In this document: positions 1 to 14,598 of the stretch, one piece after another
How positions within the stretch are numbered: the stretch's first letter is position 1
Layout of the letters: every line of letters starts with the position of its first letter
Origin: an uncultured delta proteobacterium
GTDB lineage: Bacteria > Desulfobacterota > BSN033 > UBA1163
DNA: 64,000 bases
Reading direction: 5' to 3'
Assembly: GCA_963827685.1 (NCBI GenBank)
Contig: CAWHBU010000001.1
Location: forward strand, 96,001 to 160,000
Notes under the pieces: model-generated
Told to the model about the DNA's origin: nothing
Database searches by the model: none
Seen by the model: the letters and a program-made list of their open reading frames with translations, nothing else
Position numbers and translations under genes: made by a program

Positions 1-2103
1 TAATTCAGTGAAGAAGGCTCTCCAGAAGGGAGACATCTCGTGGAAATAGAGAATCCTGGGTATTCCGATTTCTGGGGCATTGGATGGGAGTTTCTCTTCT
101 CCTTCATAGGGAGCGAAGAGCATCTTCTCTCTTTCTTCAAAGAGATCTGGTATCGTGGAGCCCTTCGTCCGTTTAATGACATCGTACTTCTCGCATCGGC
201 TTCCGTAAAAGAGGGGCTTCTCTCCCTCCACACTCACTTTTCGAATGAGACAGAGATTGGGACAACCCTTGCATTCAAACGATGTCTGTTCATAACGGCG
301 CTGACTCAGGTCGAACCCTTTAAAGCCCGATCGCTCCCATATCCGCTCTTCCATGGCCAGAATAGCGACACCGATGGCCCCTGTCACATCATGATTCTCA
401 GGAACGATGATCTCTTTCTCTAGGACTTTTTCAAAGGCAGCCACGACTCCTTTATTGAAAGCCGTCCCGCCTTGGAAAAAGATTCGGTTGCCAATACGAC
501 GGTCCCCGACCACACGATTGAGATAGTTCTGAACGATGGAGTAGCTGAGTCCGGCAATCAGGTCATCTTTTTCGGCACCCCTTTGCTGGTGATGAACCAG
601 ATCGGACTCGATGAACACTGTACATCGCTCCCCCATCCTCACTGGCTCTCCGGCAGAGAGGGCAAGGGTTCCGAATTCTTCTTTGATGGAGACATCCAGT
701 TTCTCAGCCTGTTCTTCCAGAAAAGATCCTGTCCCGGCAGCGCAGACCTTGTTCATCTCAAAATCGACCACCACCCCGTTGTCGATGCTGATATATTTGG
801 AGTCCTGTCCACCAATCTCAAAGATGGTATCCACTCTCGGATCAATATAGATGGCTGCGGTGGCCTGGGCAGTGATCTCATTTCGCACCAGATCCGCTCC
901 TACAAAATCTGCCGTGAGGTAACGACCGGAGCCTGTCGTTCCAACCCCTTTAATCTCCACACGGCCCCCAATCTCCTCGCCGATCTCCTGAAGTCCAATA
1001 CGAACCGCCTCGATGGGCCGACCTGCTGTCATCAGATAGCGTTTTGCAAGAACCTTTTTCTCCCTGTCAATGACCACCAGATTGGTGCTGATCGAACCTA
1101 CATCCAATCCCAGATAGACTTCGATCTTCTCTCCCCCTAAACTCCAAACTTTATTTCCCTCCCCATCGAAGGGGGAGGGTTGGGGTGGGGGTGAAGTGAG
1201 GTGGTTGGCAGAGAGGCAGAGAGGCTTTAGTGGAGTCTCTGTTTCTCGATGATCCCGGAGATATTGATTGAAGCGGCCGAGGCCATTCCATTCCTTTTTG
1301 CTCTCCTTGTCTTCCTGGGCCACCAGGATGGCACCGATAGCTCCCATCGAAGCGAAATGCTTTGGAACGATGAGTTCCCCATCGGAAAGTTCTAATACAT
1401 CCAAGAAGGCTTTCCGCATCCCCACATTGGCTGCCACTCCCCCTTGGAAGGAGACGGGCTTCAGAAAGATTTTTCCCTTCCCGATGTTACTCTTGAAATT
1501 TCTGGCCAAGGCATAACAGAGGCCAGCTACAATATCGTAATCCGGGGTGGCGATCTGTTGAAGATGGATCATATCCGACTTGGCGAAGACGCTGCATCGG
1601 CCTGCAATGCGGGGTGGGTTCGTTGATTTGAGAGCGAGCTGCCCAAATGCTTCAATGGTCAGGCCTAATCGGCTGGCTTGCTGATCGAGAAAGGATCCGG
1701 TGCCGGCAGCGCAGAGCGTATTCATCGAAAAGTCGCTGATCTTGGAGCGGCCCTCCTCTTCTTCGATGAGAATCAGTTTGGAATCCTCTCCCCCGATATC
1801 AATGATCGTCCTGACCTCTGGATAGAAATATTGAACCGCTTTCGCCTGGGCAATAATCTCATTGATGAAATTTCCCCCTAAGAGTTCGGAGAGGAGTTTT
1901 CCTCCGGTCCCGGTAAAAGAGATGGAGTGAGATTGTTCAAGGGGAATCCGCCGGAGGACCTCCTCCAATACCCTCTGGACGGTCTGGAGGGGTTGCCCCT
2001 TGGTGCGTGTGTAATGTTCCTCCAGCACATTCCGATGATCGTCCATGACGACGGTATTCGCGCTGACGGATCCAACATCAATACCCAAATAAAGTGACTT
2101 CAT
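1..2103 (-). CDS. Multidomain acyl-CoA dehydratase activase (two BadF/BadG/BcrA/BcrD ASKHA ATPase domains plus DUF2229-like region); 3' end runs off the window
   Basis: Absent from the ORF track, consistent with no stop in the window. Manual translation from ATG 2103 gives MKSLYLGIDVGSVSANTVV, a second domain VYLGLDVGSISTN, IFEIGGQDSK, MNKVCAAGTGSFLEEQA, FQGGTAFN, then CKGCPNLC and IGIPRIL. Confidence 0.93.
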   Translation of the reverse strand, partial: MKSLYLGIDVGSVSANTVVMDDHRNVLEEHYTRTKGQPLQTVQRVLEEVLRRIPLEQSHSISFTGTGGKLLSELLGGNFINEIIAQAKAVQYFYPEVRTIIDIGGEDSKLILIEEEEGRSKISDFSMNTLCAAGTGSFLDQQASRLGLTIEAFGQLALKSTNPPRIAGRCSVFAKSDMIHLQQIATPDYDIVAGLCYALARNFKSNIGKGKIFLKPVSFQGGVAANVGMRKAFLDVLELSDGELIVPKHFASMGAIGAILVAQEDKESKKEWNGLGRFNQYLRDHRETETPLKPLCLSANHLTSPPPQPSPFDGEGNKVWSLGGEKIEVYLGLDVGSISTNLVVIDREKKVLAKRYLMTAGRPIEAVRIGLQEIGEEIGGRVEIKGVGTTGSGRYLTADFVGADLVRNEITAQATAAIYIDPRVDTIFEIGGQDSKYISIDNGVVVDFEMNKVCAAGTGSFLEEQAEKLDVSIKEEFGTLALSAGEPVRMGERCTVFIESDLVHHQQRGAEKDDLIAGLSYSIVQNYLNRVVGDRRIGNRIFFQGGTAFNKGVVAAFEKVLEKEIIVPENHDVTGAIGVAILAMEERIWERSGFKGFDLSQRRYEQTSFECKGCPNLCLIRKVSVEGEKPLFYGSRCEKYDVIKRTKGSTIPDLFEEREKMLFAPYEGEEKLPSNAPEIGIPRILYFHEMSPFWRAFFTEL
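1155..1194. repeat. REP-like palindromic element lying in-frame inside the activase gene
   Basis: Minus strand TCACCCCCACCCCAACCCTCCCCCTTCGATGGGGAGGGAA closely matches intergenic copies at 3423-3463, 18088-18126 and 53016-53054. Confidence 0.8.
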
Positions 2104-2236
2104 CGCCTTGCGCCCAAACCACTTCAAATAGAAACTCTTAGAATTCTAATCGATCTAAATTCGACTTTTCAAGTTTAATTTCTCCCCCTCTAACGAAAAT
2201 GAACATTGACATCAACTCCCTTCCCCTCTCCCTTGA

Positions 2237-2368
2237 GAGACTGTGTCGCAATGGTGACTACGCAAAGAGATGAATCCTTCATGTTAGAGAATACAAGATT
2301 GTTAGGGGACAGGGGGCTGGCTTCCGAAGCTGGTCACCTGTCCCTCACTGCGATTACGACACAGTCTC
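2237..2368. mobile_element. 132-bp MITE with 16-bp terminal inverted repeats
   Basis: GAGACTGTGTCGCAAT (2237-2252) and ATTACGACACAGTCTC (2353-2368) pair with one mismatch. A solo copy of the right end lies at 49434-49449. Confidence 0.7.
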
Positions 2369-2417
2369 CTGGGGAGGAGAGTTTTTGGTTTGATTTCAAA
2401 CAAATCCTGTGATAATA

Positions 2418-2549
2418 GTGAAGCTGCACGCCCTAAAGGGCGGGGCTTCCCGGTGAGGTAGTTTCCGTTTATATTGTGCCCCTCCCTGCCTGCCGGTAGG
2501 CAGGGACCCCACCCTAAAGGCGGGGACCTGCGGGACACATACCGGCCAA
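2418..2549 (+). mobile_element. Non-autonomous two-hairpin element (IS200/IS605-type PATE-like), copy 1, carrying a 20-bp palindrome at 2485-2504
   Basis: GTGAAGCT...GGGCGGGGCTTCCCGG...GACCCC...GGCGGGG...CCGGCCAA aligns end to end with the reverse complement of 13759-13868. Confidence 0.7.
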
Positions 2550-2555
2550 ATCCAT

Positions 2556-2834
2556 ATGGAAAAGGTAAGGGCACGGGTCATCGTTGAAGGGAGGGTTCAA
2601 GGAGTCTTCTTTCGCCAGCACACTCAGGATACGGCTTTTAGGTTGGGGGTGAAGGGTTGGGTCAAAAACCGAAGGGATGGCTGTGTCGAGGCTGTCTTTG
2701 AAGGTGATAGGGAGAATGTGGATCAGATCATCCAGTGGTGCCATCGGGGTCCCTCTGAGGCAAGAGTAAAAAACGTTAGTGTGACCTGGGAGAATTATAC
2801 TGGCGAGTTTGAAGATTTCTCTGTTACTTACTGA
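2556..2834 (+). CDS. acyP: Acylphosphatase
   Basis: GRVQGVFFR, GWVKNRRDG.VE and GPSEARV motifs; 92 aa. Confidence 0.96.
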   Translation: MEKVRARVIVEGRVQGVFFRQHTQDTAFRLGVKGWVKNRRDGCVEAVFEGDRENVDQIIQWCHRGPSEARVKNVSVTWENYTGEFEDFSVTY

Positions 2835-2951
2835 CCTGCCGTGTTCCCAGAATACCACGCCACGAGACGGGGTTAAGGGACACAATATGAATGATATTTC
2901 GTTTGCTCGCGTCCCTCTCGCCACTGCGTGCCTGGGAAGCTCCCTGCTCTG

Positions 2952-3200
2952 TTAGCGTGGAGCTTCCATTTTCTTGGTAGCATCCTTATCCTCTTTGAAT
3001 ATCCTCTTCTTCACATCCTTCTCCACATCCTTCTCCACTTCTCCTTTTTTCTTTTTGATCATTTCTTCCATCACTTCTATTTTTTTGCCGGTATCGGTTA
3101 AACCATGTCCTACCTTCTTCAGGGTCTTACCGCCGCCGAAGTAGACGAAGAAAAAGAAGATGAGGATGCCAACGAGAACTCCTATTAAGAATTTAATCAT
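2952..3200 (-). CDS. Small membrane-anchored hypothetical protein
   Basis: N-terminal hydrophobic helix (MIKFLIGVLVGILIFFFFVYF) followed by a charged tail. AGGAGG RBS before ATG 3200. Confidence 0.7.
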   Translation of the reverse strand: MIKFLIGVLVGILIFFFFVYFGGGKTLKKVGHGLTDTGKKIEVMEEMIKKKKGEVEKDVEKDVKKRIFKEDKDATKKMEAPR

Positions 3201-3658
3201 TACCCTTTTCCCTCCTTTTCCCGACTGGGCAGACATTCAGACATTCCAAACAGGAATAAAATATTCCGTGGGTAAGGTTCTCCTACTTCTCCCAGAATAC
3301 TTGTCCTTTAAGCATGGCCCCTTTTGATCATCTGAAGCGCCTACCCGTACTTGACCAATTGGTTGACTATCTCTTCAATTTAGGGTATCAGGATTCCTTG
3401 AATTTTTCAATCCATTTGTTCCTCATCCCCACTCTTACCCTCCCCCGTCAAAGGGGGAGGGAATTCTTAAGTTAATCCCCCATAAGTGCCCCTCTCCCCC
3501 CGTGCCTGCCTGCGCGAAGCCGCTTCGGCGAAGGCAGGGGAGAGGGGAAGGGTGAGGGGGAAAGTCTTAATTGTTTTGAAATGCGAAGGTATGATAAAAT
3601 TGTATTTGAAATGAGTGGCAAGAATTATTTCGATCGGGTCTTTTCACGGAGAGATACG

Positions 3659-4405
3659 ATGCGGAAGGGATTCCTTTTTATTTTAATCTCTGTTTCGATG
3701 ATCCAATTATTTCTCTCTTCTTTAATAACGCATGCCCAATCACAAGCTATCATCGAAGTAGGAAAGTTTTCCGCTGCAAACGTCGAAGACACACTACCCC
3801 CTGGCTGGAAGCCCCTTACCTTTAAGAAGATCGAGAAGCATACTACTTATACATTGGTCAAGGATGACGATACCGTGGTCATCAAGGCCGTGGCAGAGGC
3901 ATCGGCATCCGGCTTGACCAGGGAGATTAAAATCAACCCCAAGGAATATCCCATTGTACAGTGGCGTTGGAAGATAACTAACATCCTGAAAAAGGGTGAT
4001 GTGCACCGGAAGGATGGTGACGATTACCCTGCCCGCATTTATATCACCTTCGAATATGATGGCAATAAATTAGGTTTCTTTGAAAAAGTAAAATACGAAG
4101 CAGTAAAAATATTGTATGGACAGTACCCTCCTCTCGGTGCGATTAACTATATTTGGGAAAGCAAGGCTCTCGTTGGGACAATGGTTCCCAACCCATATGC
4201 CGATAGGGTCATGATGTTTGTGGTGGAAAGCGGCTCAGCCAAGGTCAATCAATGGGCGAATGAAGAACGGAATGTTTATGAGGACTACAAGAAGGCCTTT
4301 GGTGAAGAGCCTCCGATGATCTCAGGCGTAGCCGTCATGACCGACACCGACAACACCGGTGAGTCGGCAACCGCTTATTACGGAGATATCGTTTTCAAAA
4401 AATAG
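3659..4405 (+). CDS. DUF3047 domain-containing exported protein
   Basis: Signal peptide, W.W, DDYPARIY, INYIW, ERNVYEDYKKAFG and AVMTDTDNTG motifs. ATG 3659 preferred as start. Confidence 0.88.
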   Translation: MRKGFLFILISVSMIQLFLSSLITHAQSQAIIEVGKFSAANVEDTLPPGWKPLTFKKIEKHTTYTLVKDDDTVVIKAVAEASASGLTREIKINPKEYPIVQWRWKITNILKKGDVHRKDGDDYPARIYITFEYDGNKLGFFEKVKYEAVKILYGQYPPLGAINYIWESKALVGTMVPNPYADRVMMFVVESGSAKVNQWANEERNVYEDYKKAFGEEPPMISGVAVMTDTDNTGESATAYYGDIVFKK

Positions 4406-4441
4406 ACCTGCAACCCATCCGTTTTTTCCTACTAAACTGCT
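4224..4441 (+). repeat. Direct repeat copy 1 (3' end of the DUF3047 gene plus about 36 bp downstream)
   Basis: Colinear with 7770-7987; 26 mismatches counted over the 180 coding nt. Confidence 0.93.
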
Positions 4442-4663
4442 CGTAGCTCGTTAAGTGTGGATCTAATCCAAAAATGCAGATTTCAAATAGATATCTTGAT
4501 TTCCGGAGAAGTGCACATAATGGCAAGCTATTCGCAATTTAGAATTGTAGCTTTTACATCCCCCCGTGTGTTTGTATCTCCCTTAATTACGCAGGAAATT
4601 AGTTCAACATCGAGCGAAGGATTCAATTGCTAACCCTTGGGTCCCAGACAAAGCTAATCTTGT

Positions 4664-7510
4664 TCAACTGTTCCTAAGCCGCTTTTGAGCAAAGGCATCA
4701 ATGTCTGTTTCCTGAGATCTAAGGAATTCTAGGAAACTCAACCCATTGATCCGACAGGTCTCGCATAAACTTAGAAGTATAAGATAGTCACGAATACCGC
4801 TTTCAGTTGAATTGCCACGAATATCTCGGCGCAGATAAACAAACGCTTTAACCGCATGTTCCGCGTTATTGTTATTCCAAGGAATGTTATCGTAATCGAG
4901 AAATGTAAATAGCTGCCTTTGGTTCTTCAGGAGTCGCACCTTGCATTTGGTAGCAGCATCCGTACGGAAATCTTGTTGTAAAAGTGACTTAAAAAATCGG
5001 TTCACATCTTTTTTGTGTTTTCGTAGGAAGCGTGCCTTTAAGCCGAACCTATCCACTGTTTCTATCATCGGCTTAACGAGGGCTGCAAAGTCAGCGACAA
5101 GGGATTTCATTTCATTATTAAAAGGTTCTTTGAGAAGATCGTCATTCATGTCACGAATCAGATGAATCAAACACTTCTGCTGAGGGCAGTTCAGTGAATC
5201 ATAGACTGAGTAGAAATCGGAAACCAAAACTCCCTTGAATTCCTTTAAGAGTTCAAGAACCCAACTCCCTTCACGAGTGGGGGTATATAAATACACAACC
5301 TCTTTCAAATTGGTGAACGCCCAAACATACCCTATTTGTCCCTTTACGTTCACTTCCGTTTCATCAGCGTGAATTAAATCGCCGCTAATGATCTTTTCCA
5401 TAAGTTTCTCGGTGGCAGGTTTACAATATAGGGCTACAATGGACTTGAATCTATTTGGGACGGCCCGAGAGAAACTGAGACCCAGTATTTCGTTGAAAAA
5501 TGTGGCAACTCTCTGTTGGGGTACTCGAAGAGCGATATTGAGATAGATGGTCATCGCCAGAAGATTTTTACCAAACTTCTCACTACTGTTCCAGGGTCGC
5601 TCTGAGCTCCAAAAGACTGTGTTACAAGCGGAGCATCGATACCTACAATACAAGTATTTTGTAACCCATCTCTTAATCCCTGACTTGTTATATTTTAAAT
5701 CGAGAATTGTCTTCGTATAGGCCTGGTGCTTATAGATCTTTGTTTTTCCACAAGTGGGACACTGGGAGGGGGCTGGAAAAGAAATCACTTTATTAGGGCG
5801 GAGTTTTATTCTTCTTGTTTTTGTTACTCTTCGCTCAGCTGTTTTAGGGGAGTTATCGGACTTTAGAAGTAAACGCTCTCTCTGGTAATCCCAGTATGCA
5901 GCACTATTTATCTCTTCAAGTTCGGGGAAGACAAACTGGATTTTCCGATAACGAAAGGGAAATGCACTAGGCAAAGAATCGATGTGAACGAAATCATTAG
6001 CAAATGTGCCACGGACTCCCGAATTGCGGGTACTTAAATTGATTAAACAATCCATTACTCGGCAAATTGCTTCACAGTCCTCTGAATTGTAAGTGATAAG
6101 TTTTTGCTTGAAGACACCCTCACGTGAATTATACCAGCTTTCTCGCCACAGGATAGCTTGAATCCCGCTTACATTTGGCTCAGACCACTCGAAACCGAGG
6201 AATCTCGAAATATCTTTAAGTCCATTGGAATAACAGGGGAAGTAAATCTGCCCGAATATCACTGATAACAAGTTCACAGCAGACTTGATGACATTGGCTG
6301 CTACAGAGCCTTCTGGAGGTTTACCATAACGCTTCGTCATATCCCTAAGAAAAGTGGTTTCAAAGCTACCGTAATGAATGAGAACAGGGTTTTCAACGGA
6401 TGCCAAAATATCCAAGAACTGTTGCCAGATGACTTCCTCGTCATTAACACTGTCTGCCCAAAGACTGTATTGATCGGTTGAGGAGTTGTTTCTGATTCGA
6501 AGGCCAATCAAGTAGTAAAAACCCCGATCAGGGAGTGCTTCTACGTCGAAACAGACAGGCGTACCATCAATTTTAAGTTCAGGGGTTCCCGCTACATGTA
6601 TTTTGTTCTCCCGAATCGCCAATGCCTTTAGTGAATGGTGGTATTTTTCCCTTTTTCCTCTAAGCCGCTTTGGTCGCCGACGGGGACGAAAGGTATAGGA
6701 AAGCTGGTTGACAGTGAAGATCCCCTTCTTATGATTCATCTCGCGTTCCTTTGCTGTCATGCCTTGTAACAAGCTTAGATCATCCTTCTCGACGGCCTTT
6801 TGCCGGCACTCGGCTTTGAACTCACACTCGGAACAATTTCGGTTCAGTACGAGGTCCGGTGGAGAAGGGTTCTCCAGTAAAGTGACAATCTTTTCAACTC
6901 GCTTCCGAACCTTACCCAATAGAACGATGGTCTTCACTTTCAATACGCTGTAATCATCTCCTCGGATGATTTTGGCATAAGCTACGTTATGCCCGAGCGC
7001 TTTCGACAGGGTGAGTGCATCAAATCCCAAAACTAGCCTATCGGCTTGGGTGATCTTGTACCTCGAAATAAAGCGGATGGGAATATATTGGGTGGCTCTT
7101 CTTTCCCGTTTGGAATCAATCCGTTCAACGGCCTGAAGATGAGCGGCCAACACAACTCTAGCGCTCGGGGAAGCAGACGGATATTCCTGAGAAGCTATTT
7201 TCATATGTGAACGATTCAACAGCTTCTGGAAACTAGAACTGTTGACATCACGGGGATCAGATTCAACCACCAATCTCGCAGCCAAACACCACCTGGGCAT
7301 CTTCAAATCTCCACGGGCAAATGGGAAAGAGCATTCCTTTTGTGGTGATCCTTCAAACAAGCGTTTCACTCCCGCACTATAATAGGAATTGTTTCGATCT
7401 TTGACCCACTCGGCATACTCGTTCCCTTCGCCTTTTTTGCCAAGAGAAATGTGCCAGCATTTAGTATTGCATTCGAGGTAGGCTTGGAATATCTGGGATG
7501 TGATTTTCAT
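4664..7510 (-). CDS. Fusion of TM0106/Cas4-like RecB-type nuclease region, RNase H-like (DEDD) exonuclease and IS66-family DDE transposase
   Basis: N-terminal YLEC..KC and NCSECEFKAEC (Cas4-like Cys cluster); FDVE...HYGSFE...GLK...YNSEDC (RNase_H_2-like); CPTC...RCSAC zinc finger; IHADET, LVSDFYSVY, QKCLIHLIR, NNNAEHAVK (IS66 core). Confidence 0.85.
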   Translation of the reverse strand: MKITSQIFQAYLECNTKCWHISLGKKGEGNEYAEWVKDRNNSYYSAGVKRLFEGSPQKECSFPFARGDLKMPRWCLAARLVVESDPRDVNSSSFQKLLNRSHMKIASQEYPSASPSARVVLAAHLQAVERIDSKRERRATQYIPIRFISRYKITQADRLVLGFDALTLSKALGHNVAYAKIIRGDDYSVLKVKTIVLLGKVRKRVEKIVTLLENPSPPDLVLNRNCSECEFKAECRQKAVEKDDLSLLQGMTAKEREMNHKKGIFTVNQLSYTFRPRRRPKRLRGKREKYHHSLKALAIRENKIHVAGTPELKIDGTPVCFDVEALPDRGFYYLIGLRIRNNSSTDQYSLWADSVNDEEVIWQQFLDILASVENPVLIHYGSFETTFLRDMTKRYGKPPEGSVAANVIKSAVNLLSVIFGQIYFPCYSNGLKDISRFLGFEWSEPNVSGIQAILWRESWYNSREGVFKQKLITYNSEDCEAICRVMDCLINLSTRNSGVRGTFANDFVHIDSLPSAFPFRYRKIQFVFPELEEINSAAYWDYQRERLLLKSDNSPKTAERRVTKTRRIKLRPNKVISFPAPSQCPTCGKTKIYKHQAYTKTILDLKYNKSGIKRWVTKYLYCRYRCSACNTVFWSSERPWNSSEKFGKNLLAMTIYLNIALRVPQQRVATFFNEILGLSFSRAVPNRFKSIVALYCKPATEKLMEKIISGDLIHADETEVNVKGQIGYVWAFTNLKEVVYLYTPTREGSWVLELLKEFKGVLVSDFYSVYDSLNCPQQKCLIHLIRDMNDDLLKEPFNNEMKSLVADFAALVKPMIETVDRFGLKARFLRKHKKDVNRFFKSLLQQDFRTDAATKCKVRLLKNQRQLFTFLDYDNIPWNNNNAEHAVKAFVYLRRDIRGNSTESGIRDYLILLSLCETCRINGLSFLEFLRSQETDIDAFAQKRLRNS

Positions 7511-7769
7511 GGGTCAAGGCTACTCCTTTGCTCAGATTTGTAGGATTGCGATGCAATTATGATATAAGATTCGCTTACGCAGTTGAAGTTACGCGCCCTT
7601 TTAGCAGTAACCGATCATCCGAAATGGACTCATTTAAAAATTAGTAACGGGTAAAAGCGATATCCATGTAGGACCAGATGGAGCCTTTTGGAGAAGTGCC
7701 ACTATCTGATATCTATTCTTTGTTTCCAGACAGCACAAAATATTTCGATATAACTTTCATTTATTGATT

Positions 7770-7987
7770 TGGAATGCGGCGCAGCCAAGCTCAACCAATG
7801 GGCAAATGAAGAACGAAATATTTATGAGGACTACAAGAAGGCTTTTTGTGAAGAACTGCCAATGATCTCAGGCATTGCCATCATGACCGACACCGACAAC
7901 ACCGGCGAGTCGGCCATAGCGTACTATGGCGATATCCTATTCAAAAAATAGATCTGTACCCCATCCATCTCCTCCTCCTAAACTACT
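7770..7987 (+). pseudogene. 5'-truncated second copy of the DUF3047 gene 3' end (direct repeat copy 2)
   Basis: Encodes ECGAAKLNQWANEERNIYEDYKKAF...TDTDNTGESAIAYYGDILFKK*. The upstream part of the gene is absent. Confidence 0.9.
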
Positions 7988-8002
7988 TCCTGTAAGTATC
8001 GC

Positions 8003-8031
8003 TTGACAAATTGTGTTTAACTGTGTAGATT
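8003..8031 (+). promoter_or_regulatory. Sigma70-type promoter for the ParB/PAPS reductase operon
   Basis: TTGACA-17 nt-TAGATT, about 145 nt before the ATG at 8176. Confidence 0.65.
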
Positions 8032-8175
8032 TCTTTCCGAAATCTTCAATTGACAGTTTCCAATAAAAGTGCCGTTCTAATCAAAGCTGGCGAACTTTTC
8101 TCAGGTCTTGCTTTAGTAATGAAAATGAAGTTGGTAGACCTTGTTATCTTTTTTTCTTAGATAGTGGAGGCCGCT

Positions 8176-8991
8176 ATGACCAGTCAAATATACGAGATCC
8201 GGTTAGATGAAATCAATGTCTCTGATTGGAACGTCCGCCACACTGAACCGGAGAAAGATCTTGAAGAGTTGGCGGCCAGTATCGCAAAACATGGTTTGTT
8301 CCAACCTGTTGTGCTAATGGGTAAGTATGGAAATCCACCATATGAGCTTATTATTGGCCAGAGAAGATTTCTTGCACATAAAAATATCCTCCATAAAAAG
8401 AAAATCCGTGCTGTCTTTGTTGAAAAACTGAACCAAGTACAAGCTACCATCCGTTCCTTGGTGGAGAATATGACCCGTACAGACCTTAATCACGCTAATG
8501 CAGCTGAGGCTATCACATTCTTATATAAGCGACTTGGCAAAGATGAACGTAAAGTAAAGACTGAAACTGGGTTGTCGTTGCAGAGGATAAGGCAATACGT
8601 AGATATCGGAGAACTCGCTTCAACCAAAATGAAGGATAAATTGCGTTCAAGAAAGGTTACGCCGGTTGACGTACAGCGCGTTTTAAGGGCTGCTTCTGGC
8701 GATATCGACAAAGCGGACCGCCTTTTGGAAAAGATGGAAAAGCAAAAGCTCACACCATACCAAAAGAAAAGAATGGTTGAATATGGAGAGAAACACCCTC
8801 ACGCTCATGATGATACGATTATTGAAGAGGCGCAACGCCAAGTGGTGGAACGCACAATTCTGGTGAAGCTATCAGATCAAGCCAGAGCAGGGCTTGAAAA
8901 AGCGGCTGAAAAACTTGCCATGAGCCCCGATGAAGTCGCAGCACATGCAGTTGAAGATTGGCTTTCAAGGAAGGGTTTCATAATTGCATAA
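8176..8991 (+). CDS. ParB/Srx-family CTPase-domain protein with HTH and C-terminal ribbon-helix-helix-like segment
   Basis: LAASIAKHGLFQPVVL, YELIIGQRRFLA and ENMTRTDL (ParB boxes). GGAGG RBS before ATG 8176. No parA nearby. Confidence 0.88.
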   Translation: MTSQIYEIRLDEINVSDWNVRHTEPEKDLEELAASIAKHGLFQPVVLMGKYGNPPYELIIGQRRFLAHKNILHKKKIRAVFVEKLNQVQATIRSLVENMTRTDLNHANAAEAITFLYKRLGKDERKVKTETGLSLQRIRQYVDIGELASTKMKDKLRSRKVTPVDVQRVLRAASGDIDKADRLLEKMEKQKLTPYQKKRMVEYGEKHPHAHDDTIIEEAQRQVVERTILVKLSDQARAGLEKAAEKLAMSPDEVAAHAVEDWLSRKGFIIA

Positions 8992-9676
8992 GAAAGATGA
9001 CAAGGCGCGAAAGGGAAAATACAGTCAAAGCGAAATTGAGGATGCTCTGGCTGGGCTAATAGCGAGTACAAAGCGGATCCATCGCAAATTAGACCTTGTA
9101 CAGATAGCAAAAAAGATAGAGATCGCTCGCGAAGGATTAGGAAATTTGAAGAAAGTATCTGAAGCTATTGGGTTGTCCACAGAGATGCTCCGCCAGTTCT
9201 CAAGAGTCACAAAAATTGTTCCTGAAGCACGACGTTTTGTAACAGCAGGTGCAATTCAAAGTGTTGATATCGCAGATCGCATTAGCCGACTTCCACAGGC
9301 AGATCAATTTCTGGTTGCCCAGGCAGTTTCGCGTGGGGAATTGAACAGCGATGATGTCAGGGCCATTATTTCATTTAGAAAAGACCAGCCAAGACTTCCG
9401 ATAAGCAAGGTAATATCCCTTGTCATGGGCTCTCGCAATATAAGAGAGTACGTTGTCCAATTTCTGGTTCCTGCAGAAGAAAAGCTAAAGAACATAGAAG
9501 ATCTGTTTTTCAAATTGCTCGGCCAAGACGGAGTACGTTCTGTGAATCTCGAAAAAGGACTGGGAACGCTAATATTAAATGAAGATGGCAAGAAACGGTT
9601 TGAACTTATTGCTAAAAGGAGGGATTTAACAAAACGTGCACTGGTGAAAGAAATCATTTCCGGGGAGGTTAAATAA
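8984..9676 (+). CDS. ParB-related HTH protein lacking the N-terminal CTPase domain
   Basis: LKKVSEAIGLSTEMLRQF HTH resembles ERKVKTETGLSLQRIRQY of the upstream ParB. The TTG start overlaps the upstream stop. Confidence 0.7.
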   Translation: MHKKDDKARKGKYSQSEIEDALAGLIASTKRIHRKLDLVQIAKKIEIAREGLGNLKKVSEAIGLSTEMLRQFSRVTKIVPEARRFVTAGAIQSVDIADRISRLPQADQFLVAQAVSRGELNSDDVRAIISFRKDQPRLPISKVISLVMGSRNIREYVVQFLVPAEEKLKNIEDLFFKLLGQDGVRSVNLEKGLGTLILNEDGKKRFELIAKRRDLTKRALVKEIISGEVK

Positions 9677-9678
9677 CA

Positions 9679-10341
9679 ATGCCCAGAATGACAAGGAGAA
9701 CGCAACCCGGGCGTCTGGCCACTCAACTACATTTGCAGGAATTTTACTCTCTCAAAGAAGAGCTTTCACAATGGAGGACAAATCCACAGATCCAAGAGAT
9801 GGAAAGAGAAAAGTCCGGTGGACTTGTTTTGGGCTTTGTTAAAGGGTTACGCTTATCAGCAAGATTGATTTACGCTATCCGTGAGAATCTTTCTGAATAT
9901 GAGCTTGAGGTAGACTGGGGTCATTTATTGACAGAAGATGGAAACTCATGTTCGCCAGAGTGTGATATCATTATTCATTTGCCCGGACATTGGCGTGAGT
10001 GGAATGAACATGAAAAAAAAATTATGGATTTCAAGTTTATAAAATGTCAACGAGCAATTGCAGTCATCAGTTGCAAATCTTTTCTCAGTGCGGTCGATCG
10101 GGAATATCCCCGGAAACTGAGTTCCTACGTTAACAAGGTGCTACTTTTCGCTGAATGTTGTGAACCAAATGCTGTAGATAGACTTAAAAGATCTGCAGAA
10201 TCGGCTGGCTACAAAGGTTTCTGGTATTTATACGCATGTAACCAAACTACTTCCCAATGCACTATAGATCCAGACCAATGGGAAAACTTTCTGCACACGT
10301 TAAGGTCCATTGCACACAGGCATCGGCGGGGGTATCGTTGA
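9679..10341 (+). CDS. Putative PD-(D/E)xK-like nuclease (DUF6602-like)
   Basis: GHLLTEDGNSCSPECDIIIH and AVISCKS resemble the SxQxDIII...IEVKS pattern. GGAGG RBS present. Confidence 0.6.
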   Translation: MPRMTRRTQPGRLATQLHLQEFYSLKEELSQWRTNPQIQEMEREKSGGLVLGFVKGLRLSARLIYAIRENLSEYELEVDWGHLLTEDGNSCSPECDIIIHLPGHWREWNEHEKKIMDFKFIKCQRAIAVISCKSFLSAVDREYPRKLSSYVNKVLLFAECCEPNAVDRLKRSAESAGYKGFWYLYACNQTTSQCTIDPDQWENFLHTLRSIAHRHRRGYR

Positions 10342-10343
10342 AT

Positions 10344-11330
10344 ATGAAGGCTACAACGGAAAAAGGTCTTGGAAGAGGATATGATGCCGGTTGGGAATCT
10401 GCAGCAAAAATAATACTGAAAAAGAATTTTCGCGGCCTACAAATTCGATGTCCAAAATGCAATAAAACCGGTACATTAATCACCAAATGGATAAAGGGAT
10501 CACCGATAAAACCGCTTTATGCTTGCCATAGCAATGGTAACGGTTACTTTAAAGCATGTCACTTAGAAGGCAAACAAGCCACCTATGCGAGAGCCAACAT
10601 TGGAATAGGCAGAGATGATATTTTGAAAACTTTGAGAATGGGAGAACCTTTTGTACTTTTTAGCGGTGGCAAGGATAGTCTCTGTCTGCTCTATTACATC
10701 AGCCGACTGGCTAAAGCAATCGGGAAAGAAATCACTGCAATCCACGCGGATACAACGGCGAGCTTCCCGGAGGTTGAAGAATACGTTCAGAATGTTTGCT
10801 CCCAATTAAGTGTACCTCTGGTGACCGTCCGTCCACCTCACGATTATTTTGAGCTTGCGAAAAGGTGGGGTATCCCTGGAGTAAAATCTCGCTGGTGTTG
10901 TTCAACTTTAAAAATCGCACCAATTCGGCGGTTTCTTTCGAATGTGGTAGGACAAAAAATTATATTTGATGGCATAAGATCAGCCGAATCGAACATCCGT
11001 GCAACTTATAATCCCATTTGGTACCATCCGGCATTTCGGTGTATCAGTGTGAGCCCTATTTTTGATTGGTCGGATGAAAAAGTAAAAAAGTATATAGAGG
11101 TGAATAATCTTCCAAAAAGCCCGACCGCGAATCTGAACACTTCAGCGGAATGTTGGTGTGGTGCATATAAGTGCAGAAATGATTTTGAAGCCTTAATCGA
11201 TATTCACCCGGACATTTTTGATAAACTTGTTGAGATCGAAAAAGCACAAAAGGGTAAATACACTTTTCTCTTTGAAAAAGGCGTGCGAGTTCCTTTGGAC
11301 TCTCTGAAGAAGGAGAAAATAAGAAAATAG
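10344..11330 (+). CDS. Phosphoadenosine phosphosulfate (PAPS) reductase-family PP-loop protein with N-terminal zinc ribbon
   Basis: FSGGKDS PP-loop, HADT, RWCCSTLKIAP, GIRSAES..R, PIFDWS and ECWC; N-terminal CPKC...ACH...ACH. ATG 10344 lies 2 nt after the previous stop. Confidence 0.88.
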   Translation: MKATTEKGLGRGYDAGWESAAKIILKKNFRGLQIRCPKCNKTGTLITKWIKGSPIKPLYACHSNGNGYFKACHLEGKQATYARANIGIGRDDILKTLRMGEPFVLFSGGKDSLCLLYYISRLAKAIGKEITAIHADTTASFPEVEEYVQNVCSQLSVPLVTVRPPHDYFELAKRWGIPGVKSRWCCSTLKIAPIRRFLSNVVGQKIIFDGIRSAESNIRATYNPIWYHPAFRCISVSPIFDWSDEKVKKYIEVNNLPKSPTANLNTSAECWCGAYKCRNDFEALIDIHPDIFDKLVEIEKAQKGKYTFLFEKGVRVPLDSLKKEKIRK

Positions 11331-11442
11331 ACAAAACCAATAAGACTTTCAGTCAATATTCCTCAACTGCCTATCATCGGAATATCTGGAGATAAGTAGT
11401 TGAAAGTGTTGGTCCAGATTTGATGAACTGATGTCTGCCAAA

Positions 11443-12345
11443 TCAAATCTTTGCTTTTGCCGCTTGTCCCTCCTGTCCCCTTCTGGCTTTCCTAATGTCC
11501 TCCAAATAAAACTTGATCAGAGGAGACATCTCGGGGGGTTGCCAATCTGTCTTTTTGGGTTCTTCGGGCCAGGTGAACGGTAGATGCCAGACCTCCCCTG
11601 GTTTTTTGGCCTTTTCAAGAACCTCAAGGGTTTTTAGAAGAACTTCCCTTTGACCTTCCCGGTCTCCGACCTGCCCTACGGGTCTCCCGTAAGGGTATTC
11701 AATGGAGGCAGATCGGGGGATTCCTACAGCCCGATGAAATTCATAGGTGGGCGTGAGAACAACGGCTGAGAATCCATCCTCCTCCAAGAACCTCGCAGCC
11801 AGTCCGACGGACTGACAGCAGAAGGGTCAGGCTGGAGTCATGAGGACTGCCTCGACTCTCTCAAGTCTCATCCTCATGGAAATAGGCTCAATAGCTCCTT
11901 TTAGGTAATCGGTACTCTTCCATTGAAAACCGTAAAAGGAATAGGAGGTAGGAGCGAGACGGCCAATGATTTTCTCCTTCTCAAATTCAGCCATCCGTGC
12001 CAGAGGAAGGATGACATTGATATCCTGTTTGATATAGTTGGTATTAATATGGAGGTGATTGACTTCAATATCCTTCTCGGTGGTCCCTCTCGGTATCTCC
12101 CGATAAGAACGGTCACCCCAGAGAGGTTCCTTTTTCTCTCTTTCCATATCAAAAGGAGGATCTGTTTTTAAACTGATGCCAGCGCTCGTCACTAAGGCCA
12201 TGGTCGTCTGATTCAAGGGCTTAGCCACTGGCGTCCAGGGAATATAGCCCTGATACTCTTCTTCTGGAATGAAGGTGTTGACCCAAGCTTTTAAGCCTGG
12301 GGGAAGAAACCGAAATCCATCCACCTTTTTCTCTCCTTGTTCCAT
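11443..12345 (-). CDS. Glycine/sarcosine/betaine/D-proline reductase selenoprotein B (GrdB/PrdB) family protein, Sec at UGA 11827-11829
   Basis: ORFs 11827-12372 and 11443-11787 are in the same frame across one TGA, reading LMTPA-U-PFCCQSVGLAARFLE (UxxC). ALVTSAG and QDINVILPL motifs present; a SECIS-like hairpin follows. Confidence 0.88.
11789..11826 (-). promoter_or_regulatory. Putative bacterial SECIS element
   Basis: Minus strand after UGA: GU-CAGUCC-GUC-GGACUG-GC hairpin with G as the first loop base. Confidence 0.7.
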
Positions 12346-12585
12346 AGGATCCCCCTCTTTCGCTATGCGCATAGCGCCTGCCTACCAGCAGGCAGGCTTA
12401 GCGTGCTTAGATATATATATAAATGTTAGGAAACAGCCAAGTCGAAAAACCCGATAGCTACCTTCCCCTTACTTTTAGATTTCATTTTTTTCAGTCGTAA
12501 GGGTATAATAGTCGCTAATAAAATAATTCTATCAAAAATCTGCCCTTATTCCAATGGACTGTTATTGTCAGAAGGGTGTTAACAA

Positions 12586-13641
12586 ATGGAAATTATAAGA
12601 ATACACCAGAGCAGAAGACATCAAATCGATTTCGAAAATTTGGGGTTCGGAGAGATTTTCTCAGACCACATGTTCAGCATGGAATATAAGAACGGGGGAT
12701 GGGGTTCATCTCAGATTATTCCGTATGGGGAGATTGCGATTTATCCATCCATCTGTTCACTGCACTATGGACAGATCGTCTTTGAGGGTCTTAAGGCATT
12801 TTATACCCAGAGAGGTACGATCAATATCTTTCGCCCTGAAAAATATTACGAGCGGATGAATCTCTCCTGTCAGAGGCTCTGTATCCCCGAGGTAGGTTTT
12901 GACATCTTCATGAACGGTTTGAAAGAACTGGTGACCCTTGATAAGGAATGGGTCCCAAGAAAAAGGGGATATTCCCTCTATATTCGCCCGTTCATCTTTG
13001 CGACAGATAATTTTCTCGGCGTCAAGGTCTCTGAGACTTATCGTTTTATGATCATCACTTCTCCTGTCGGAGTCTATTACAAAGAAGGGATTAATCCCGT
13101 GAAATTGATCACACCCGGAGAATATATCCGTGCAGCAAAAGGTGGCCTCGGCGCAGCAAAAACGCCAGCCAATTATGCTGCAACTCTCCTGCCTGCTGAA
13201 GAGGCAAAAAAGAAAGGCTTCACACAGATCCTCTGGCTTGATGGGAACGAAAGGAGATATATTGAAGAAGTGGGTACGATGAATATCTTTTTCCTCATCG
13301 ACGATCAACTGATTACGCCCCCTTTAGAAGGAACCATCCTCGGCGGAGTCACTCGGGATACGGCGATTCATCTTGCAAAAGATTGGAAAATCAATGTAAC
13401 AGAGAAGAGAATCTCTATCGATGAGGTCATATCGGCTTCAAAGAGAGGCGGATTAAAAGAGGCATTTGGAACCGGCACCGCAGCGGTGATCTCGCCTGTC
13501 GGTGAGATTCAATATGAGAATTGGCGAATGATCATAAACGAAGGCAAGATAGGGCCTTTGTCCCAAAAACTATACGATGAGATTACAGGAATCCAGTATG
13601 GAGAAAGAGCAGATAAATACGGATGGTGTTATTTGATCTAA
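12586..13641 (+). CDS. ilvE: Branched-chain amino acid aminotransferase
   Basis: LHYGQIVFEGLKA, LYIRPF, AKTPANYA, EEVGTMN, ILGGVTR and GTAAVISP. Confidence 0.96.
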   Translation: MEIIRIHQSRRHQIDFENLGFGEIFSDHMFSMEYKNGGWGSSQIIPYGEIAIYPSICSLHYGQIVFEGLKAFYTQRGTINIFRPEKYYERMNLSCQRLCIPEVGFDIFMNGLKELVTLDKEWVPRKRGYSLYIRPFIFATDNFLGVKVSETYRFMIITSPVGVYYKEGINPVKLITPGEYIRAAKGGLGAAKTPANYAATLLPAEEAKKKGFTQILWLDGNERRYIEEVGTMNIFFLIDDQLITPPLEGTILGGVTRDTAIHLAKDWKINVTEKRISIDEVISASKRGGLKEAFGTGTAAVISPVGEIQYENWRMIINEGKIGPLSQKLYDEITGIQYGERADKYGWCYLI

Positions 13642-13758
13642 GGATTTTGGACAGGGCGATCCTCTACGGAATTTGAAGGTGTCCAATTTATACGTAGAGC
13701 ATAAGGAAAAATAGAGAGAAATGAGTTAGTATTTGGAAAAAGAGTTTTCCGTTTTCTC

Positions 13759-13868
13759 TTGGCCGGAACGTGCCCCGCAAGCCCCGCCTTGTAGGCGGGG
13801 TCAAGGGGCATAATATGAAATGAAATTACCTTGCCGGGAAGCCCCGCCCTGGGGGCGGGGAGCTTCAC
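13759..13868 (-). mobile_element. Non-autonomous two-hairpin element, copy 2 (no palindrome insert)
   Basis: Reverse complement aligns with 2418-2549; two GC-rich hairpins CCCCGCC...GGCGGGG. Confidence 0.7.
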
Positions 13869-13929
13869 ATCGATTAGATTTTAGAATTATTTTTGTTTAA
13901 TGATTTCACTTGATTCGGGGGATAATAGC

Positions 13930-14598
13930 GTGTCTCTCTTTATTACTTTTGAAGGCGTAGAAGGGAGTGGTAAGACCACGCAGATTCAACGCCTGAAAGA
14001 ATATCTCACCCGAAAAGGCATTCCGTGTAAAGTAACCCGAGAGCCAGGAGGGTGTCCTATTGGTGAGAAAGTAAGGAAAATCCTTTTGAACCCAGACCAT
14101 CGTGAGATGGTCCCGACAACCGAGCTCCTCCTCTACGAAGCCGCCAGGGCACAACATGTGAATGAGGTCATTAAGCCCTTTTTGAAAAAGGGAGGGGTCA
14201 TTCTTTGCGACCGTTTCAGCGATGCCACCCTTGCCTATCAAGGCTACGGGCGAAGGATAGACTTGAAATGGATTGAACGCCTCAATCATCTCTCCTCTCA
14301 GGGCATCAAGCCCGATGTCACCTTCCTTCTGGATTGTCCTTCTAATGTAGGATTAAACAGAGCGCTTCAAAGGAATCGAACGCTGAAACAAGAAAGAGAG
14401 GAGCGCTTTGAAAGAGAGGAGATTCCATTTCACCAGCGGGTGAGAAAAGGGTACCTTGCCATTGCCAAAAAAGAACCCCGTCGGGTCAAAGTGATCGATA
14501 CCCGAGAGGGTGAAGAGAAAGTCTTTGAAAAGATTCGAAAAATCGTTGATAATTTATTAATAGGGATCAAGGAGTCAAGGGGTCGAGGGATCAAGTAG
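13930..14598 (+). CDS. tmk: Thymidylate kinase
   Basis: FITFEGVEGSGKTT, TREPGG and CDRFSDATLAYQG. GTG 13930 preferred as start. Confidence 0.96.
   Translation: MSLFITFEGVEGSGKTTQIQRLKEYLTRKGIPCKVTREPGGCPIGEKVRKILLNPDHREMVPTTELLLYEAARAQHVNEVIKPFLKKGGVILCDRFSDATLAYQGYGRRIDLKWIERLNHLSSQGIKPDVTFLLDCPSNVGLNRALQRNRTLKQEREERFEREEIPFHQRVRKGYLAIAKKEPRRVKVIDTREGEEKVFEKIRKIVDNLLIGIKESRGRGIK

Follow-up and report, generated by a model that had tools for sequence, protein, structure and literature searches.

A fusion gene within a discrete unit

The window, a 64,000-nucleotide stretch of contig CAWHBU010000001.1 (positions 96,001 to 160,000) from an uncultured delta proteobacterium (assembly GCA_963827685.1), contains a ~3.24-kb unit whose single gene joins a TM0106-type nuclease-like module to an IS66 transposase in one polypeptide. 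The open reading frame (ORF) encodes 948 amino acids (aa), lies on the minus strand at window positions 4664–7510 (stop codon included), and is unbroken, as an earlier note made from the sequence alone had stated. Logan contigs from runs X1 and X2 span both junctions of the unit with zero differences. The assembly is therefore sound, and the reading frame is not an assembly artefact. Judged by its sequence, the unit keeps the zinc ribbon and DDE core of the IS66 transposase TnpC, carries a TM0106/COG2251 module upstream of them, and is without tnpA and tnpB. We regard it as probably an autonomous mobile element derived from IS66, in which the upstream module would serve as an accessory for end processing, and as a member of a large, undescribed, single-gene branch of this insertion sequence (IS) family. 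The encoded protein has the following parts.

6791..7510 (aa 1–240), minus strand: Cas4-like domain with a four-cysteine cluster of iron-sulfur (Fe-S) type, C14/C226/C229/C235 (Foldseek, alignment, 111-sequence census)
~aa 85–125, minus strand: variable insert inside the Cas4-like domain
6686..6784 (aa 243–275), minus strand: helix-hairpin-helix (HhH)-like two-helix segment (invariant G263, T266, and L270; helices in the structural model)
to ~aa 303, minus strand: conserved basic linker following the HhH-like segment
6041..6565 (aa 316–490), minus strand: PolB-type 3'-5' exonuclease domain (RNase_H_2) with DEDDy-like residues D322/E324/E384/Y474/D478 (PF13482, census, Foldseek)
directly before the zinc ribbon, minus strand: family-specific linker with an AAYWDYQRE motif
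5624..5761 (aa 584–629), minus strand: zinc ribbon, C584/C587/C626/C629 (Pfam, alignments)
4796..5575 (aa 646–905), minus strand: IS66 DDE catalytic domain with D716 (HADET), D765 (SDFY), E884 (NNNNAEH), and C780/H783/R786 (Pfam, NCBIfam, alignments, fold)

Profile searches recovered both modules. In Pfam, RNase_H_2 (PF13482) matches aa 319–489 (E 2.6e-22), DDE_Tnp_IS66 (PF03050) matches aa 646–905 (E 4.7e-34), and a zinc ribbon is weakly matched at aa 581–629. Among the NCBIfam models, TIGR03491 (TM0106 RecB-like putative nuclease) scores 199.3 bits against a cut-off of 97.45 over aa 138–487, a match that spans profile positions 107–460 of 462 only, and the transpos_IS66 equivalog NF033517 scores 195 bits against a cut-off of 180 over aa 570–931. 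The Cas4 model TIGR00372 reaches only 13.5 bits, with a cut-off of 65, and the protein is not a Cas4 by this hidden Markov model. The split Cas4-like cysteine cluster (C14 apart from C226/C229/C235), the RNase H-like exonuclease motifs, the zinc finger, and the IS66 DDE core named in the earlier note were all recovered. Its HhH-like segment stands on the three invariant residues and two model helices, and the Pfam search gave no HhH match.

AlphaFold models were obtained for the two halves. The model of aa 1–560 (pLDDT 83, pTM 0.78) is closest in Foldseek to Cas4 structures (8d3l_I, E 1.7e-6; 4r5q; 4ic1), followed by exonuclease domains of family-B DNA polymerases, Dna2, and RNase T. The model of aa 561–948 (pLDDT 82) is closest to the ISCth4 DDE transposase (6xgx_A, E 3.3e-7, TM ~0.4), with further matches to Hermes and Mos1.

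Catalytic and metal-site residues across the family

Residues of the transposase half are strictly conserved. Among 32 full-length homologs, D716-E717-T718, D765, E884, C780, H783, and R786 are invariant, as are C587, C626, and C629 of the zinc ribbon, and the DDE catalytic columns are likewise invariant in an alignment of 63 sequences. Loss of these residues across the family, which the earlier note named as an outcome that would count against its reading, was not seen. The exonuclease is conserved to the same degree, with D322, E324, E384, Y474, N475, and D478 each present in 111/111 sequences of the census. All parts of the DEDD signature are in place (ExoI D-x-E, the ExoII acid, and ExoIII Y-x3-D), and the exonuclease residues are identical to those of standalone TM0106 proteins. 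The cluster cysteines are equally constant (111/111 for C14, C226, and C235; 110/111 for C229).

The PD-(D/E)xK site of the Cas4-like domain was compared by aligning the fusion family to three standalone TM0106 proteins (L195, L196, and L197), which retain the motif II Asp, the motif III (D/E)-x-K, and the motif IV Q...Y. In the window protein, the corresponding positions are occupied by Q126, R146, I148, V160, and D164. Across the family (n = 111), the motif II Asp position holds H in 84 sequences, Q in 13, and D in 10. In motif III, R146 stands in place of the acid in 109/111 and I or V occupies the Lys position in 99/111; in motif IV, L replaces Q in 91/111 and D164 replaces Y in 108/111. 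The degeneracy that the earlier note remarked on in a single protein therefore extends to the whole family, and because the canonical residues are replaced throughout, the Cas4-like domain is predicted to be a dead nuclease that has kept its fold and its Fe-S-type cysteines. The same genome also holds an intact standalone TM0106 gene of 499 aa (G000:C3:506711-508063, locus L195, ORF 1468–2967, minus strand), whose product is 19% identical to the N-terminal half of the fusion over the alignment (24% in the genome search).

Family size, breadth, and selection

The fusion belongs to a large protein family. A word-indexed protein search returned 4104 proteins at E ≤ 0.001 among 8000 candidates scored. 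Among the 120 best homologs, 118 are 794–1053 aa long, carry both PF03050 and PF13482, and are 49–94% identical to the query; the other two (583 and 655 aa) have PF13482 only. Linker and domain order are the same in these 118, and the variable junctions expected if an IS66 had recently been inserted in frame into a TM0106 gene, another unfavourable outcome raised in the earlier note, were not observed. When the N-terminal half was searched against 1.84 billion cluster representatives (50% clustering), 3675 matched at E ≤ 1e-3 and 797 at E ≤ 1e-30, and for the best 150 the alignment runs to ~aa 550, into the linker that is missing from standalone TM0106 proteins. The three nearest ESM Atlas clusters with the same architecture have 73, 53, and 134 members, and a fourth has 56; by domain content, the Atlas counts are 10 for PF03050+PF13482+PF01930 and 2 for PF03050+PF13482 alone. 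With each species represented by one genome, a scan identified 539 relatives, and the best-matching 80 come from Verrucomicrobiota, Acidobacteriota, Nitrospirota, Planctomycetota, Bacteroidota, KSB1, and Hydrogenedentota, and from alpha-, beta-, gamma-, and 'delta'-proteobacteria. There are thousands of full-length homologs in more than 10 phyla, and the fusion is no recent in-frame accident. Database names for these proteins are inconsistent and include 'predicted RecB family nuclease', 'IS66 family transposase', and 'TM0106 family RecB-like putative nuclease'.

Ratios of nonsynonymous to synonymous change (dN/dS) were computed by the Nei-Gojobori method for 14 of 16 close pairs, the other two lacking the landmarks. 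Values are 0.21–0.38 for the entire ORF, 0.12–0.42 for the DDE part, and 0.16–0.31 for the HhH and exonuclease part, with one pair at 0.70 that rests on few changes. The Cas4-like part gives 0.22–0.67 for a region that takes in the variable insert and some upstream open frame. Purifying selection acts on every domain.

Shorter relatives also occur. Proteins of 430–470 aa on long contigs are 45–52% identical to the C-terminal half and start inside the family-specific linker, near the AAYWDYQRE motif. They may be N-truncated derivatives or a natural short form.

Limits of the unit and its site in the window

Comparison with related sequences places the limits of the unit on either side of the ORF as follows.

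4532..7769, minus strand: inserted, probably mobile unit of ~3238 bp with one ORF (limits from metagenome contig L115, the X3 contig, genome G351, and the DUF3047 fragment)
7511..7769, minus strand: 5' leader of 259 nt, of which the last ~70–95 nt alone are common to relatives of 72–82% identity
4532..4663, minus strand: 3' trailer of 132 nt, with a 24-nt indel at 4585–4608 relative to L115 and the X3 contig
4497..4531, no strand: native target DNA adjoining the 3' end of the unit, present in the uninterrupted G351 site
7770..7987, plus strand: 3' fragment of a second DUF3047 paralog (a 60-aa remnant and 36 nt), 84% identical to 4224–4441

Contig L115 is 95% identical to window positions 4517–7731 and more weakly similar to ~7767, and its flanks outside these limits are unrelated. 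Run X3, from a separate study, contains a 3228-nt contig that spans exactly 4517–7731. Its ends fall at most ~19 nt from the limits shared with L115, ~15 nt outside 4532 and ~20–40 nt inside 7769; a contig that stops near the unit limits is what a repeat would be expected to give. In G351, from the same genus, native DNA downstream of the DUF3047 gene matches the window to position 4531 and then diverges, showing that the unit is absent from this site.

The unit lies between two DUF3047 sequences. A 218-nt direct repeat (84% identity) at 4224–4441 and 7770–7987 pairs the 3' end of a full DUF3047 gene with that of the truncated paralog. Congeners G352 and G355 likewise have two DUF3047 3' ends, 1.4–3 kb apart, so the tandem paralog pair is probably native. 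The window copy appears to have lost the 5' part of the second DUF3047 gene beside the unit, as could happen by IS-mediated adjacent deletion, and a gene fragment without its 5' part next to an element is the pattern expected from such a deletion. An adjacent deletion here would leave no target duplication visible at this site. In congener G347, a DUF3047 3' end lies ~860 nt from the homolog of window position 11434 onward, which indicates that the entire interval 4420–11433, comprising the unit and a ParB/PAPS-reductase island, is accessory.

Distribution of copies

Pairs of loci with 84–99.9% nucleotide identity were used to locate where similarity stops, and it ends near the ORF. In many clades the 5' break is found 0–30 nt before the start codon, and in others 60–260 nt before it. 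The 3' break often falls directly after the conserved C-terminal motif, so that non-conserved DNA supplies the final codons; other pairs have the break 45–200 nt past the stop. Copies that are at least 99.5% identical occur in differing flanks (L118/L123; L133/L175/L185), and no conserved neighbour gene was seen among the loci. In addition to one intact copy, genome G304 has two broken copies and fragments, and G302 has one copy and a 95% identical fragment. The decayed copies in these two genomes are frameshifted, truncated, or internally deleted.

Fusion genes were found in 3/301 sampled genomes of the window's phylum. Plasmid records gave three matches, and full-length fusion genes are carried, one copy each, on plasmids of cultured Acaryochloris marina MBIC10699 and Calothrix sp. 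PCC 7716. In general terms the unit behaves as an insertion sequence: a discrete segment that is present or absent at a given site and has copies in several contexts. The earlier note had proposed checking copy number and empty sites, which gave 1–3 copies per contiguous genome and the G351 site without the unit. Its suggestion of a domesticated transposase fared poorly in view of the patchy occurrence, the near-identical copies in different contexts, the decayed copies, and the empty site in a congener. Patchy distribution, low copy number, and decayed copies indicate the behaviour of a mobile element rather than of a domesticated gene. The pattern is that of a selfish, horizontally moving element.

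Target sequence

At the 3' junction, the flanks of the window copy and of the independent L115 copy are ~73% alike over ~33 nt, and the uninterrupted G351 site bears the same ~33-nt target sequence. These two insertions and one empty site suggest a target preference. In 69 unique contexts, a TTCTCC-type motif showed no enrichment (right flank, 9; controls, 3–4), and the left side of the G351 target has no real similarity to the unit leader. A search for an empty site corresponding to the Methylobacter copy found the flank in 0/40 congeners.

One candidate signal was set aside. A direct repeat (~12–20 nt) of a leader motif at the 3' boundary was seen by eye in the window, in the L131/L171 clade, and in the L139–L146 clade, and was first taken as att-like or guide-like; statistics gave no family-wide support. 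In the L138 clade, the 3' copy of the leader motif is internal to a 65-nt repeat arm, which counts against an att-like reading. A 10–12-nt identity between the 3' flank and the leader motif (~7700–7688) likewise found no support family-wide, from RNA folding, or in Rfam.

Neighbouring features

GC content is 0.42–0.44 at ~4000–14000, compared with 0.47–0.54 in most of the window, which fits an accessory region. Beyond the DUF3047 fragment, positions 8164–11330 encode a ParB_N protein, a DUF7119-like protein, an unassigned 220-aa ORF, and a PAPS-reductase/PP-loop protein. This island has counterparts of 86–88% identity elsewhere in congeners G356 and G349, on other contigs, is absent beside DUF3047 in G347, and is probably a separate mobile or defence island. 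We take its row of genes to resemble IbrA/IbrB or DndB/C-like pairs.

On the other side of the unit, a GC-rich palindromic intergenic stretch lies at 3489–3560. In runs X3 and X4, the summed depth of contigs at its ~35-nt core (~3504–3538) reaches into the thousands, and dozens of contig breaks fall at 3503–3505 and 3538–3539. It looks like a very abundant hairpin in these communities, of the repetitive extragenic palindromic (REP) type or otherwise widely repeated.

Interpretation and alternatives

We assign a probability of about 0.65 to the interpretation of the unit as a mobile element that derives from IS66, acts autonomously, and carries an accessory module for end processing. Several observations weigh against it, beginning with those on element ends. 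Canonical GTAA(GCG) inverted repeats of ~15–30 bp were not found at the unit, whose ends at 7769 and 4532 show weak AT-rich similarity at most. The earlier note had pointed to a single IS66-like end without a convincing partner. The absence of a canonical pair was upheld, and the end itself is a chance match, since the window contains 3 occurrences of GTAAGCG where 2.57 are expected, and both copies within the unit are on the same strand, one of them inside the ORF. The copy in question is listed here.

7572..7578, minus strand: GTAAGCG heptamer, 191 nt inside the unit, not conserved in relatives of 82% and 72% identity, without an inverted partner

The search for ends was extended to the family. 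In Smith-Waterman comparisons of the start and end regions of 95 loci, scores equal those of unrelated-locus controls for both direct (10.06 vs 9.76) and inverted (10.72 vs 9.84) orientations. Among 80 loci taken with 400-nt flanks, 4/80 exceed the 99th percentile of controls for inverted repeats and 5/80 for direct repeats. A seed-based repeat scan (62–134 loci) found repeats above background only in L005 and L048 (inverted) and in L039, L029, L120, and L005 (direct). The inverted repeat of L138 is 65 nt long, with a right arm that is found again in L145, L146, and L157, and L048 has a 30-nt repeat with sub-repeats; the sequences in L005 and L120 are palindromic, similar to host REP-type sequence, and present in both orientations, and that in L126 is of low complexity. 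A weak inverted repeat in the window (p ~0.01–0.05) was discarded because it partly used 4517–4531, which is native flank. No 8-bp duplication was found at the window copy (where one side is a deletion), L115, L048, or L138, in a family whose ends are not firmly defined outside the window clade. The flank comparison that the earlier note had called for therefore yielded isolated repeats, such as those of L138 and L048, but no terminal inverted repeats common to the family, no 8-bp duplications at the four loci named, and no RNA in the window leader.

The same boundary approach succeeded on a positive control, a plain 458-aa IS66 with ~30 near-identical copies in genome G301 (loci L095–L114). 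It defined a 1445-bp, single-ORF element of ISBst12 type that is bounded by GTAAC... inverted repeats and flanked by unambiguous 8-bp duplications. For the fusion family, either the ends are short, fast-evolving, and clade-specific, or the element does without standard ends.

Other observations on the negative side concern expression, activity, and descent. A promoter scan found none in the leader (7511–7769), with 5 sites found in comparison to 5.8 expected from shuffles; the minus-strand matches are only at 7517–7488, across the start codon, and inside the ORF. Copy number is low, at 1–3 fusion copies per genome in five contiguous genomes. The contigs mapped to the window, which cannot show rare excision, contain no transposition event, circle junction, or excision joint. 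Identities of the N- and C-terminal halves are only moderately correlated (Pearson 0.43, Spearman 0.16), and a single fusion event is not claimed on that basis. Mosaic relatives (L128/L142, L013/L026, and L035/L061) have high nucleotide identity over part of the ORF only, which suggests recombination among family members. The leader also gave no Rfam match and folds no better than shuffles (z +1.22).

Low copy number and the shortage of general inverted repeats and target duplications are what would be expected if the fusion were instead a domesticated or 'guest' gene, a factor in DNA repair, defence, or plasmid maintenance that is transferred horizontally by other mobile elements and has ceased to move its own DNA. 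Purifying selection on all domains, the position of the window copy in a low-GC accessory stretch beside the ParB/PAPS-reductase island, and the copies on conjugative or other plasmids would also agree with such a role. However, the conserved unit consists of the ORF and a short leader and trailer only and recurs in unrelated flanks where no conserved neighbour gene was seen, and the X3 contig ends near both unit boundaries. Further arguments for an element that moves itself are the copies in G304 and G302 that carry frameshifts, truncations, or internal deletions, the invariant DDE triad, and the adjoining DUF3047 fragment without its 5' part, as expected after an adjacent deletion. We consider a guest gene unlikely.

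If the unit is an autonomous IS66-derived element, the DDE half would perform 3'-end cleavage and strand transfer at the element ends, as in other IS66 members. The dead Cas4-like domain may act as a clamp for a DNA end or a single strand; Cas4 itself holds the 3' overhang within Cas4-Cas1-Cas2. The tethered DEDDy exonuclease could trim the 3' strand to the transposase-protected end or process donor or target DNA, and the exonuclease module might substitute for accessory proteins, making tnpA and tnpB dispensable. Their absence, stated in the earlier note, was borne out: the single ORF of the unit leaves no place for them, and TnpB_IS66 (PF05717) has 0 matches across the organism's own genome (94.5% complete). 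Since the Cas4-like domain appears to be a dead nuclease, any trimming would need the exonuclease domain, and a specific trimming step by that domain is a tentative proposal drawn from the Cas1 systems. The processing-plus-integration machine that the earlier note envisaged, by analogy to Cas4 or DEDDh with Cas1, is a plausible inference only.

A bolder form of this mechanism can be described as a 'trimmer-transposase', a DDE element that would be independent of precise inverted-repeat ends and without the usual 8-bp duplication. Guided by the dead Cas4-type clamp, the exonuclease would turn ragged or single-stranded DNA into reactive 3' ends, and insertion would be directed to a preferred ~30-bp target. 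We consider this version quite unlikely. If true, it would be a new route of transposition and would have a natural counterpart in CRISPR spacer processing.

The unit could also be a mobile IS whose N-terminal module, instead of trimming transposon ends, works on the target or at a stage after integration, recognising ends, forks, or a preferred target, or processing gaps or flaps. A dead Cas4-like domain that keeps its Fe-S cysteines is what a binding domain would look like, the window and L115 copies adjoin similar ~33-nt sequences that the empty G351 site also carries, and N-truncated forms that start from the linker on long contigs imply that the DDE half could stand alone. However, the target similarity consists of two insertions and one empty site, the TTCTCC-type motif is not enriched in the 69 unique contexts, and the short forms may be pseudogenes or gene-call artefacts, which makes this role very unlikely. 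An artefact, whether an assembly chimera or an IS66 that recently landed in frame within a TM0106 gene, would fit with the separate intact TM0106 gene in the same genome, but it has a negligible chance of being correct given that the standalone gene is 19% identical and has intact PD-(D/E)xK motifs, which are missing from the fusion, that thousands of full-length homologs have the same junction and linker, and that independent contigs bridge the locus.

Significance and comparison with known systems

The architecture is already in public databases, where it has been annotated automatically, and the family seems never to have been studied. No description of a fusion between IS66 and a TM0106 or Cas4-like protein was found in a literature search judged mostly by titles and abstract openings, which did not extend to ISfinder or to paper supplements (those of PMC5704561 and PMC3985635 might list such fusions). 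In the available part of a Cas4 phylogenomics paper, 'transposase' occurs 0 times. The only mention of TM0106/COG2251 proteins found was in a classification of the RNase H-like superfamily, the accessible part of which lists COG2251 and IS66 separately (PMC3985635). IS66 itself is described, in the accessible part of a recent paper, as a widespread IS family with an insufficiently characterised mechanism (PMC12898284).

An autonomous element of this kind would represent a branch of thousands across many phyla in which an exonuclease and a dead Cas4-like Fe-S domain, the exonuclease joined covalently to the transposase, would take the place of accessory proteins. Such a branch would provide a natural experiment on the coupling of end-processing nucleases to integrases, as with Cas4 or DEDDh and Cas1, and might open a first way into the function of the uncharacterised TM0106/COG2251 proteins. 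The copies in cultured Acaryochloris and Calothrix make these ideas testable. For annotation, fusion genes would mark mobile DNA, and their Cas4-like domain should not be labelled an active nuclease.

TM0106/COG2251 proteins (TIGR03491) have the same order of parts as the N-terminal half of the fusion, namely a Cas4-like four-cysteine domain, an HhH-like segment, and a PF13482 exonuclease. Standalone TM0106 proteins are ~500 aa long and keep D...(D/E)xK...Q..Y, whereas the fusion replaces all of these residues and continues into the transposase. The C-terminal half resembles ISCth4 in having a DDE RNase-H-like core with a helical insertion, but ISCth4 belongs to another IS family (IS256) and is 12–15% identical, and the match indicates the fold class only. 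Two other systems offer partial parallels. TnsA of Tn7 is a PD-(D/E)xK-fold partner of the DDE transposase TnsB, an active endonuclease on a separate polypeptide, and RecC contains an inactivated nuclease fold that serves as a DNA channel. No sequence or structural match of the fusion to TnsA or RecC was obtained.

Within IS66, the closest comparison is to the ISBst12 group of single-ORF elements, such as ISDge4. Like the unit, these have one ORF without tnpA and tnpB and encode a zinc ribbon and an IS66 DDE core with motifs of the HADET, SDFY, and NNNAEH type. In the accessible part of PMC12898284, absence of tnpA and tnpB is the rule for the group. ISBst12-type elements differ from the unit in their length of ~1.4–1.5 kb, a transposase of ~450 aa, GTRAC... 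inverted repeats, and 8-bp duplications (ISDge4, from the same part of PMC12898284; G301). The fusion ORF has double the length and includes the TM0106 module, and such repeats and duplications were not found with it. The plain G301 transposase matches aa 593–876 of the fusion only (E 1e-33).

The remaining comparison is to CRISPR adaptation, where a DEDDh exonuclease fused to the Cas1 integrase has reportedly been studied as a 'trimmer-integrase'. Unlike Cas4-Cas1-Cas2 and DEDDh-Cas1, the fusion has a DDE transposase and not Cas1 as its integrase, its Cas4-like domain is predicted to be dead, and its TIGR00372 score is far below the cut-off. No link to CRISPR was seen, and no search was aimed at one. 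What it shares with both is a Cas4 fold and/or a DEDD 3'-5' exonuclease coupled to an integrating enzyme that works by 3'-OH attack.

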